Source: Candidatus Sumerlaeota bacterium
GTDB lineage: Bacteria; Sumerlaeota; Sumerlaeia; UBA8349
Length of the DNA: 64,000 nt
Assembly: GCA_016931035.1 (NCBI GenBank)
Contig: JAFGFN010000181.1
Coordinates: 3,664-67,663, forward strand
Direction: 5' to 3'
In this document: positions 38,713-41,700 of the stretch, piece after piece
Layout of the letters: each line of letters begins with the position of its first letter
Numbering within the stretch: position 1 is the first letter of the stretch
The notes under the pieces: generated by a model
What the model saw: the letters and a program-made list of their open reading frames with translations, nothing else
Told to the model about the DNA's origin: nothing
Database searches by the model: none
Position numbers and translations under genes: made by a program

Positions 38713-41700
38713 ATGAGACAGACCCTCGCACAATTGAGAACGCGCTATCTTCGCTGTGAGTACCGTGAGAATCCGCTGGGGATCGACGTGAAGCGGCCGC
38801 GCCTGAGCTGGATCGTCGAATCCAAACGGCGCGGCGAACGGCAAACGGCCTATCGAGTCCTCGTCGCCCGGAGTCGCGAGAGCCTCGACGCCGACCGGGG
38901 CGATCTGTGGGATACGGGGAAGGTCGCGTCGGACGAGACCCTCCATGTCGAGTACCGAGGCAAACCGCTCCGGTCGGGGATGGCGTGCTTCTGGAAGGTG
39001 CGGGTGTGGGACCGCGACGGTCGCGCGTCGGCGTGGAGCCGCCCGGCGACGTGGTCGATGGGTCTCTTGAAAGATTCGGATTGGAAGGCGCGGTGGATCG
39101 GTCTCGATCTGCCCGAGTTGCCCGAGCCGCGCGATCTCGACGGGTGCCAGTGGATTTGGTTCCCCGAAGGGGATCCGCGCCGGAGCGCGCCGCTCGGGAC
39201 CTGTTGTTTCCGCCGCGTCATCGAGCTTCCGGCGAACCGCGCGATCCGCAGGGCGTCGATCGTTCTCGCGGTCGATTCGTATTACCGCGTGTCGGTCAAC
39301 GGCGGTCAGATCGTCAACAGCGGACAGCCCGCGCGGGCGCAAGAGGCGGACATCACGTGGCACTTGCGGCCCGGAAAGAACACGGTCACGGTGATTGCCG
39401 ACAACCTGGGGATGCAGCCCAAGCCCGCCGGATTCATCGGCCGCATCCTGCTCGAATTCGAGCGCGGCCGCTCCGTCGCGATCCCGACGGACCGCAATTG
39501 GCGCGTGTCGAGGGAGAGTGGCACGGGCGGTGGCGCGGGCGTCCCGCCCGTGCTCTTCCATGGGCAAGATGCTCGCACTGCCGCAAGACATGGGCGAGAC
39601 GCCCATGCCACCTCAAGACATGGGCGAGACGCCCATGCCACCTCAAGACATGAGCGGGACGCTCATGCCACTTGGCCTCGCGCGATGGAACTGGGGAAGT
39701 ACGGGCGCCAACCCTTCGGCCGGCCCGAAATCCTCAAGATAGACCTTCGTCCGCCGCGTCTTCTCCGCAAAACCTTCCGCGTCGCGAAGCCAATCCGGCG
39801 GGCGACGGTTCACGCCTCGGCGTTGGGCGTTTACGAGCTGCGACTGAACGGGCGCAAGGTGGGCGAGGACGTTTTCACGCCCGGATGGACCGACTATCGC
39901 ACCCGCGTTTACTACAACACCTACGACGTGACCGACACGCTTCACGCGGGAGTGAACACGCTCGGCGCTCTCCTTGGCGACGGGTGGTTCACCGGATACG
40001 TCGGGCCCGGCCTGAAACGCGAGCGATTCGGGACGAACGAGCCGCGCTTCCTCGCGCAGCTCCACCTGGAATACGCCGACGGCACCGGCGAGACGCTCGC
40101 GACCGATCGCACGTGGAAAGCGGCGACCGGAGCGACGCTCGAAGCCGACATGCAAATGGGCGAGACCTACGACGCGCGTCTCGACGCGCCCGGTTGGGAC
40201 GGCGGCGCGACGCGCAAACGGTTCGACGATTCGCGATGGCGCGGCGTTTCGGTCGGCGCTTCGGTCCGTCCGCGTCTTCAATCGTATCCCGGCAGTCCCG
40301 TCCGCGTGTTCCGCGAGATTCGCCCGCTCAAGATCATGCGCACGATCCCCGGTCGTCATACGATCGACATGGGAACCAACTTCGCGGGATGCGTCCGGCT
40401 CAAGGTGAAGGCCCGACGCGGCCACAAGATCGTCGTGCGGTTCGGCGAACGGCTGAATCCCGACGGCACGGTGTACACGAACAACTTGCGCCGCGCTCGC
40501 GCCGTAGACACCTACATCTGTCGAGGCTCCGGCGAAGAGGTGTGGCAGCCGCGCTTCACGTTCCACGGCTTTCAGTACGTCGAACTGATCGGCTATCCCG
40601 GCACGCCCGATCTCGATTCCGTCACCGGGATCGAATACACCGCCTCGACCCCGGTTGCGGGCGAGTTCAAATGTTCCGATCGGACGGCGAACACGTTGTA
40701 CCGCAACATCTGCCAGACCCAGCGGTCCAACTTCATCGAAGTGCCGACGGACTGTCCGCAGCGCGACGAGCGCCTGGGTTGGACGGGCGACGCGCAGATC
40801 TATATTCGCACGGCGACGTACAACACGGACGTGGCGGCGTTCTTCGGCAAGTGGCTCACGGATCTCGAAGACGCGCAGTCGCCCGACGGCGCGTTCCCGG
40901 ACGTGGCGCCGACCCGCTCGATCCGGGGCGGCGGCAAGGCCGCCTGGGCCGACGCGGGGGTCATCTGCCCGATGACGTTCTACCAGGTCTATGGAGACAA
41001 ACGGCAACTCGCGCGGCGCTACGAATCGATGACCCGATGGATCGAGTTCTGTCGCGCGAACAGTTGGAATCTGATTCGCGGCCCTCATGGTTATGGCGAC
41101 TGGTTGAGCATTCACGCCGACACGCCCATCAATCTCATCGCGACGGCCTACTTCGCCCATTCGACGCGACTCGTCGCCGAGGCGGCGCGCATCCTGGGGA
41201 AGAAAACCGACGCGCGAAAGTACGACGCCCTGTTCCGCGAGATTCGCGAGGCGTTCAACCGCGTCTTTGTCGACAAGAAGGGCGTGTTGGCGGGCGACAC
41301 GCAATCGGCGTACGTCATGGCGATCGCGTTCGATCTTCTCTCGCCCAAGATGCGCGAGGCGGCGGCCTTGCGACTGGTCGCCAACCTCCGCGCGCGCGGA
41401 TGGCGTCTCTCGACCGGGTTCCTCGGGACCAAGGACCTCATGGGGGTCTTGACGAAGATCGGCCGTCCCGACGTCGCGTATCGTCTCTTCCACAACGACA
41501 CGTTCCCCTCGTGGGGGTTCTCGATTCGTCACGGGGCGACGAGCATTTGGGAACGCTGGGACGGCTGGACCCCCGAAAAGGGATTCCAGACCGTCGATAT
41601 GAACTCGTTCGCCCACTACTCGTTCGGCGCGGTGGCCGAATGGATGTTTCGGACCGTCGGCGGGATCGACACCGACGGTCCCGCCTACAAACGGATCGCG

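Follow-up and report, generated by a model that had tools for sequence, protein, structure and literature searches.

The window analysed here, a stretch of 64,000 nucleotides (nt) with a G+C content of 63 % from contig JAFGFN010000181.1 of a Candidatus Sumerlaeota bacterium, contains two neighbouring glycoside hydrolase (GH) genes, each of which carries a cluster of repetitive extragenic palindromic (REP) units within its coding frame. The gene with the longer cluster encodes a GH78 alpha-L-rhamnosidase on the + strand (38713..42012; 1099 amino acids (aa) from the ATG at 38713, the longest open reading frame (ORF) starting from a TTG at 38641) with the Pfam domains Ig_Rha78A_N, Bac_rhamnosid_N, Bac_rhamnosid, Bac_rhamnosid6H and Bac_rhamnosid_C. 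Its product is 100 % identical to P0001, an NCBI entry of 1099 aa named 'family 78 glycoside hydrolase' from a Candidatus Sumerlaeota metagenome-assembled genome (MAG). It aligned to the Streptomyces avermitilis structure PDB 3w5m (E = 5.7e-268) with the RDERLGW and WERW motifs intact, which in that structure contain the catalytic Glu636 and Glu895. The second host gene (34832..38248, + strand, 1138 aa) was identified by Pfam as a GH2/LacZ-type beta-galactosidase with the domains Glyco_hydro_2_N, Glyco_hydro_2, Glyco_hydro_2_C, LacZ_4 and Bgal_small_N, and its product is likewise identical to an NCBI protein from a Candidatus Sumerlaeota MAG (P0121). The cluster in the GH2 gene is referred to as copy 1 and that in the GH78 gene as copy 2.

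Copy 2 occupies 39518..39671 on the + strand (154 nt; residues 269-320 of the 1099-aa protein), beginning with GTGGCA and ending with GCCAC, and it is stop-free and in frame with the GH78 gene. The first-pass annotation had placed the repeat at 39520-39675; it does lie there, with borders that differ from these by a few nucleotides. The cluster opens with a 12-nt arm made up of the tag and the 5' arm (GTGGCACGGGCG, 39518..39529, + strand), an in-frame tandem duplication that Tandem Repeats Finder reported as a period of 12 at 39518-39541 (2.0 copies). It is followed by an inverted head unit (39530..39552, - strand), which reads GTGGCGCGGGCGTCCCGCCCGTG on the + strand and encodes GAGVPPV. The spacer CTCTTC separates the head unit from a degenerate first direct unit (CATGGGCAAGATGCTCGCACTGCCGCAAGA, 39559..39588, + strand), in which the palindrome is broken and which encodes HGQDARTAAR. 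Two 30-nt units then follow on the + strand (39589..39618 and 39619..39648), each composed of the 23-nt REP CATGGGCGAGACGCCCATGCCAC and the 7-nt spacer CTCAAGA and each encoding HGRDAHATSR. As had been noted earlier, these two in-frame units are 100 % identical, and the hairpins of both are present in the centroid fold. The terminal unit (CATGAGCGGGACGCTCATGCCAC, 39649..39671, + strand; HERDAHAT) carries a stem variant that is compensated. Tandem Repeats Finder detected the 30-nt period at 39584-39671 (2.9 copies, 94 % matches).

Copy 1 (36429..36561, + strand) is built in the same way. Its inverted head unit (36429-36451) is followed by the spacer GTCTTC, a G+C-rich hairpin unrelated to the REP (36457-36475), two direct units (36479-36501 and 36509-36531) and a terminal unit carrying a GAGC stem variant (36539-36561), with a 30-nt period at 36481-36561 (2.7 copies, 82 %). 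Copies 1 and 2 are separated by 3.09 kb and share their orientation and reading frame; they are collinear and 85 % identical across 134 aligned nt with 21 gapped columns. The count of three against four units given in the first-pass annotation was roughly right; the 21-nt difference in length consists of the 12-nt duplication, which appears as a gap in the alignment, and a 9-nt indel in the first slot. A search of the window for the unit pattern with at most three mismatches gave seven matches, every one of them inside the two clusters, where 100 shuffles predicted 0.00; the leader, i.e., the inverted head unit that opens each cluster (GTGGCACGGGCGTCCCGCCCGTG), was found four times against 0.01 expected. 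The spacer STCTTC is common to both clusters, and the terminal GAGC/GCTC stem variant occurred only in these two among the 224 units collected from the window and from loci of other genomes. The similarity ends at the borders: the 60-nt flanks match at 35/60 and 34/60 positions, where the random level is 32.6 +/- 2.8.

Because the whole architecture and the unique terminal unit are common to both, the two clusters look like copies of one composite, which makes independent insertions, as originally proposed, unlikely. Slippage, the other process that had been suggested, is plausible within the arrays. The inner two units of each array carry their own stem variant (CAAGAT in copy 1, CGAGAC in copy 2), and local duplication or conversion is therefore indicated. 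Gain or loss of units, as in a phase-variable contingency repeat, cannot shift the frame, since 30 nt is divisible by three. The earlier observation that the antisense strand of both copies is open holds for one of the three antisense frames per copy; counting both strands, four frames out of six are open over the full length of each cluster. The 23-nt core contains no stop codon in any of the six frames; the open antisense frame is therefore uninformative, a composition effect of the stop-free core at 63 % G+C, and the same property explains why REP elements can be tolerated in genes.

The unit consists of a 23-nt hairpin, CAYGRGCR-NNN-YGCYCRTG with the tail GCCAC, followed by a 7-nt spacer. 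Its 8-bp, G+C-rich stem with a 3-nt loop corresponds to the short (20-40 bp), imperfect, G+C-rich palindrome that characterises REPs. Across distinct units, 95.4 % of stem cells were paired, in a set preselected for at least 6 of 8 pairs and compared with 22-42 % in slid controls; double changes occurred at 6 of the 8 pairs, and none of 500 shuffles reached the observed values. Folding z-scores were -3.6 and -5.0. The units of the window all have GCCAC at their end, which is complementary to GTGGC, and among the 224 units 203 carried the tag GTGG (ending CCAC) and 16 carried GTAG (ending CTAC).

GTAG-tagged REP families were defined by Di Nocera, De Gregorio and Rocco (2013, BMC Genomics 14:522; PMC3733652), who described HH, TT and HT dimers, linked these REPs to REP-associated tyrosine transposases (RAYTs), tabulated intragenic REPs, and reported one Opitutus terrae family in which the tag is mutated from GTAG to GTGG in most elements. 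Among the 'REP-encoded residues' that Additional file 3 of PMC3733652 gives for O. terrae GTAG-19 are the peptides from all six frames of the head unit CACGGGCGGGACGCCCGTGCCAC, including GTGVPPV. On account of this six-frame identity, a match made through translated peptides, we assign the unit to an O. terrae GTAG-19-like family within the GTAG-tagged REP superfamily. In-frame copies of GTAG-19 were reported in O. terrae genes for GH2 (Oter_1283), GH20, GH28, GH31, uvrA, dnaE2 and others (PMC3733652), so that both the REP family and its in-frame presence in genes have been known since 2013. The element had no Rfam family match at gathering or E-value thresholds.

A scan covering one genome per species turned up exact units in other genomes, at no fewer than 120 loci, whose labels span about nine phyla. 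The labels among the loci listed, some of which may reflect mis-binned contigs, were Planctomycetota (~67), Verrucomicrobiota (20), Kiritimatiellia (6), Sumerlaeota (6), Acidobacteriota (4), Hydrogenedentota, Lentisphaerae, Ignavibacteria and Thermodesulfobacteriota (2 each), Peribacteria (1) and unclassified (8). Viral contigs gave 3 unit matches in 2.9 million. The commonest form among the loci listed was a tags-outward inverted doublet, GTGGCACGGGC...GCCCGTG, a 3-36 nt spacer and CATGGGC...GCCCATGCCAC, which was mostly non-coding; about 60 such dimers were seen there, and in both window clusters the head unit is likewise opposed to the direct units. Head-to-tail arrays with a 30-nt period also occurred in non-coding DNA elsewhere (loci L121-L126), and the period was therefore rejected as an adaptation to coding. 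Within assembly JAESGR01, a composite of ~110 nt, comprising three REP units and a GCGGCTTGCGCCGC hairpin, was nearly unchanged at four sites (L121, L123, L125, L126), and composites therefore appear to propagate as blocks.

Two further observations concern these arrays. The hairpin GCGGCGC-AAT-GCGCCGC within copy 1 (36457-36475) resembles that of the JAESGR01 composite. Measured from start to start, neighbouring units of the same orientation were spaced by 24 nt in five cases, 30 nt in four, 33 nt in three, and 27, 39 and 34 nt in one case each. Multiples of three thus account for 14 of 15 spacings in a small, non-independent sample, in which some arrays look non-coding.

The position of the clusters in the two proteins was analysed by comparison with homologues. 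Among the 65 closest GH78 homologues (at most 56 % identical, aligned with MAFFT), all 65 lack the 38-residue block at copy 2, where 51 REP-encoded residues stand in place of 13 native ones, a net gain of 38 aa. One of the replaced residues is a Trp that at least 90 % of 45 homologues have. The alignment to 3w5m breaks between query residues 290 and 343 (longest-ORF numbering), i.e., between the lectin-like domain, a region that also matched lectin structures, and the next domain. An AlphaFold2 model of the GH78 protein from a 46-sequence alignment (predicted template modelling score 0.78) gave block-mean predicted local distance difference test (pLDDT) values of 25-34 at residues 271-310; pLDDT was below 50 at residues 270-313, and the adjoining blocks scored 78 and 84. 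The segment encoded by copy 2 is thus predicted to be disordered.

A similar situation was found in the GH2 protein, where all 78 aligned homologues lack the ~68-aa block at copy 1, among them another Sumerlaeota protein with 56 % identity in the best local alignment. Within the TIM barrel, copy 1 falls between the catalytic motifs NES and CEYAH, in a loop whose length varies within the family, and ~72 extra residues replace 4 in the comparison with the Thermotoga structure PDB 6s6z. About 25 further GH2 residues immediately upstream of copy 1 (36338-36428) have no counterpart in most homologues and could be either a native variable loop or older inserted DNA. Since the homologues lack the block, the alignments to the PDB structures break there and the borders are sharp, the clusters are best described as insertions of a discrete DNA element and not as conserved protein sequence.

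Insertions of this kind were also found in other genes. In six cases Pfam domains were identified on both sides of an in-frame REP doublet, namely in PurL (L063, L071), GH3 (L104), a pectate lyase (L003), HsdR (L067) and an IcmF-type mutase (L078); in a ResIII helicase (L084) the Pfam match lay only upstream of the insert. Intragenic inserts elsewhere were mostly located between domains. The frames in use differed from gene to gene (GTGVSPV..HGRDAHAT, WHGRPARD..MGETPMP, CGTGVSPV..MGKMPMPR, and also GMGVSPM..), and because the DNA is read in at least three different frames, the REP peptide can be regarded as a by-product of the DNA. Two groups of candidates were set aside: several long ORFs that span REPs at G+C-rich loci (L113, L034, L028, L038 and others), which are probably spurious, that in L113 having no Pfam family, and L004 and L051, in which translation probably starts downstream of the REP.

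The two PurL cases, from a Tepidisphaeraceae MAG (region L063:2371-2393) and another Phycisphaerae MAG (L071:1327-1408), carry the doublet at the same protein position, directly before ..NIASKH.IIRQYD, in two genera and with different spacers. The shared site may be a hot spot, or else the insertion is old and has been retained. PurL of O. terrae also bears REPs, of another family (PMC3733652).

A candidate for the mobilising enzyme was obtained by screening ORFs near REPs for an HUH motif, followed by Pfam. The ORF at L057:4995-5877, from the Sumerlaeota MAG contig CAZVVA010000049.1, is a RAYT (NCBIfam NF047646, 91.5 bits against an equivalog cut-off of 80; Pfam Y1_Tnp). A REP doublet of the same family lies 25 nt upstream of its ATG, and a second doublet, with its first unit truncated, lies inside the 3' end of the ORF. 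Judged by its sequence, this locus is a classical REPtron. A separate regular-expression screen for RAYT motifs over all loci and the window returned a single match, a ketosynthase, which was a false positive.

Taken together, the feature is most probably an intragenic REP cluster whose composite was copied into two genes, most likely by REP machinery, and which is translated passively; we give this reading a probability of roughly 0.8. The view of the first-pass annotation that the repeat is hairpin-forming, mobile-type DNA and not conserved protein sequence is borne out by the block-free homologues (65 of GH78, 78 of GH2), the sharp borders, the compensatory stems, the at least 120 loci and the REP-flanked RAYT in the phylum. 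We infer the following sequence of events for mobilisation at the two sites, translation of the insert and its neutrality for enzyme function. A composite of one inverted unit and a head-to-tail run with a 30-nt period would have been copied into the two neighbouring genes, most likely by the REP machinery of this genome, a REP-associated tyrosine transposase of the HUH/Y1 type that works on hairpins in single-stranded DNA; the alternative is ectopic gene conversion between copies. Such an insertion would survive where its length is a multiple of three, as it is here, its frame is stop-free and its site is tolerant, and selection would keep only insertions of this type; the sites here are an inter-domain linker (GH78) and a variable TIM-barrel loop (GH2). 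Slippage or conversion within each array would later duplicate and homogenise the 30-nt units. The insert would be translated as a disordered loop of ~50 residues rich in His, Asp, Arg and Ala, a by-product and not a functional module.

Several points weigh against this interpretation. The search for a RAYT gene within the 64-kb window found none, and the link to the transposase comes from another Sumerlaeota MAG. Just two clusters occur in the window, each of them inside a gene, too few to show a high copy number in this genome, and head-to-tail arrays are described as rare among REPs (PMC3733652). Loss of the 13 native GH78 residues, with the conserved Trp, could carry a functional cost, so neutrality is not guaranteed. 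Translation of the insert is predicted from the sequence, and the sequence itself comes from a MAG.

The rival that survives best concerns the route of spreading. The GH78 copy could derive from the GH2 copy, the reverse could be true, or both could come from a third copy, by ectopic gene conversion or replication template switching at hairpins. The collinearity of the clusters, their distance of 3.09 kb in the same orientation, the terminal unit found in both and nowhere else, and the lack of a transposase gene in the window scan are all compatible with such a route, and to our knowledge REP transposition is rarely seen directly. Gene conversion, however, requires flanking homology, whereas the flanks here are at random similarity, and the phylum does contain a RAYT with REPs of this family on both sides; we consider this route unlikely.

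Recruitment of the element for a function is improbable. It would act either as mRNA hairpins in ribosome pausing, processing or stability, or as His/Asp-rich decapeptides serving as a flexible linker or metal-binding tag. That both insertions lie at a domain boundary or loop in the same reading frame, with stems maintained by compensatory changes and a peptide rich in His and Asp, would fit this idea. Against it, the REP DNA is mostly non-coding, the homologues all function without the block, and the stem covariation belongs to the whole REP family and not to these two copies specifically. The metal binding or surface tag proposed in the first-pass annotation finds no support, given the other frames in which the same DNA is translated elsewhere and the predicted disorder of the segment.

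A repeat-induced mis-join during MAG assembly, which would have put REP sequence into two genes artificially, is very improbable. REP units do often lie at contig ends elsewhere (L021, L059, L073, L080) and hence break assemblies, but the flanks of each cluster come from the same gene, frame and length are preserved at two separate sites, and the same phenomenon is present in the finished O. terrae genome (PMC3733652). As for strain variants, the protein cluster of P0001 has one member, an exact search for the 5' junction in metagenome contigs gave 0 matches, and looking up contigs that encode P0001 also returned 0. The 52-aa repeat peptide gave 0 matches in an index of 5.8 billion proteins, a result that reflects the limit of the word index, since P0001 holds the peptide. 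A native low-complexity repeat evolved in place, unrelated to mobile DNA, would account for the in-frame tandem decapeptides, but it is refuted by the homologues, none of which has the block, the palindrome at the DNA level and the identical units in at least 120 unrelated loci. Other classes of element were also rejected: a CRISPR array, as the spacers are 7 nt long and repeated and the array lies inside an ORF; a miniature inverted-repeat transposable element, as no direct repeat surrounds either cluster (AAAAG|...|TCCCC; GGAGA|...|TTGGC) and flank similarity is random; and the families of Rickettsia palindromic elements, as the tag here is GTGG/GTAG and not CGTC.

As an intragenic REP, the feature is ordinary, and it extends the GTAG-19-like family to Candidatus Sumerlaeota. 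Its unusual points are the head-to-tail 30-nt array and the two adjacent hosts, both carbohydrate-active enzymes: it appears that coding DNA can receive a whole multi-unit composite, beyond the doublet, and that the resulting disordered stretch of ~50 residues is tolerated, in GH78 at the price of 13 native residues. A wider reading, which we put forward tentatively and regard as possible but doubtful, is that one REP family and its RAYT are shared across the roughly nine labelled phyla, implying inter-phylum spread or extraordinary conservation, and that composites move as blocks into coding DNA and recurrently create disordered enzyme loops, the shared PurL site in two genera and the adjacent carbohydrate-active enzyme genes here being examples. 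The range concerned, with Planctomycetota, Verrucomicrobiota (including Kiritimatiellia and Lentisphaerae), Sumerlaeota, Hydrogenedentota, Acidobacteriota, Ignavibacteria and others, would be unusually broad for one REP family, and this possible cross-phylum spread is the most interesting lead for the evolution of REPINs (REP doublets forming hairpins) and RAYTs. For annotation, the results serve as a warning that GTGVPPV, HGRDAHAT and MGETPMP in genomes of the PVC (Planctomycetes-Verrucomicrobia-Chlamydiae) type are translated repeat DNA and not protein motifs.

Both host genes belong to a cluster of the pectin/rhamnogalacturonan type, which comprises a pectinesterase, two DUF6785/DUF6784 proteins, GH106, GH2, GH78, GH127 and a GH106-like gene. 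The two genes for DUF6785 + DUF6784 proteins are tandem paralogues (27627-31813) with direct repeats offset by 2123 nt and 71-77 % identical. The GH2-GH78 intergenic region (38255-38540) is dense in other palindromic repeats and includes a sub-threshold Rfam match to Acido-Lenti-1 RNA (38455-38486, - strand; 28.4 bits against a gathering score of 37, E = 0.001). Elsewhere in the window, a different dispersed repeat with the hairpin GGCCAGGGCAACGCCCTGG was located at 15297-15353, 59113-59169 and 59281-59311; it is 93 % identical between two sites, the second of which has a partial copy, inverted, at a distance of 114 nt. Heptamer arrays (TTAGGCT, with the GCCTACA type opposite) at 57080-57112 and 57259-57295 are inverted on either side of a non-coding stretch of ~150 nt. 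Upstream of an ORF without a Pfam match (59340-60290, - strand), Rfam identified a cobalamin riboswitch (RF00174, 99.1 bits; 60447-60642, - strand), and the ORF at 2448-3413 (- strand) carries SEFIR/TIR domains (Pfam E = 4.6e-11 and 3.7e-08).

The clusters can be compared with four known systems. The bacterial interspersed mosaic elements (BIMEs) of Escherichia coli are likewise clusters of several REP units with short conserved spacers. BIME units alternate in orientation, are extragenic and bind integration host factor or gyrase, whereas the units described here run head-to-tail and lie in coding frame. For the Rickettsia palindromic elements (RPEs), we know of no dedicated transposase. As summarised in PMC3733652 (from Ogata et al., 2000), the RPEs share with our element the presence of selfish palindromic DNA in frame within genes that are probably still functional. 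Their sequences are unrelated to those described here, RPE-4 and RPE-6 being CGTC-tagged REPs and RPE-1 being longer (PMC3733652). Their hosts are obligate intracellular alphaproteobacteria.

Compared with the REPIN/RAYT system, the window copy is a multi-unit array and not a doublet, and the search of the window for a RAYT gave none. Families of REPINs tend to be lineage-specific, whereas the unit described here is near-identical across about nine labelled phyla. The features in common with this system, or REPtron, as PMC3733652 cites it from Nunvar et al. (2010) and Bertels and Rainey (2011), are the dominant inverted doublets and, in a Sumerlaeota MAG, the RAYT flanked by the same REPs. The closest counterpart is GTAG-19 of O. 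terrae, with which the present element shares the 23-nt unit in all six frames, the GTGG/GTAG tag, the doublets, in-frame copies in glycoside hydrolases and the GTGVPPV...HGRDARAT peptides (PMC3733652). The hosts differ, O. terrae belonging to the Verrucomicrobia and the genome studied here to the Sumerlaeota. Most O. terrae inserts are singles or dimers of ~7-30 aa, with few of ~50 (PMC3733652), whereas here one inverted unit is joined to a head-to-tail array of three to four 30-nt units encoding ~45-51 aa. Unlike in O. terrae, the same composite is present in two adjacent genes, and 13 native residues of the GH78 protein were lost at one of the two sites.

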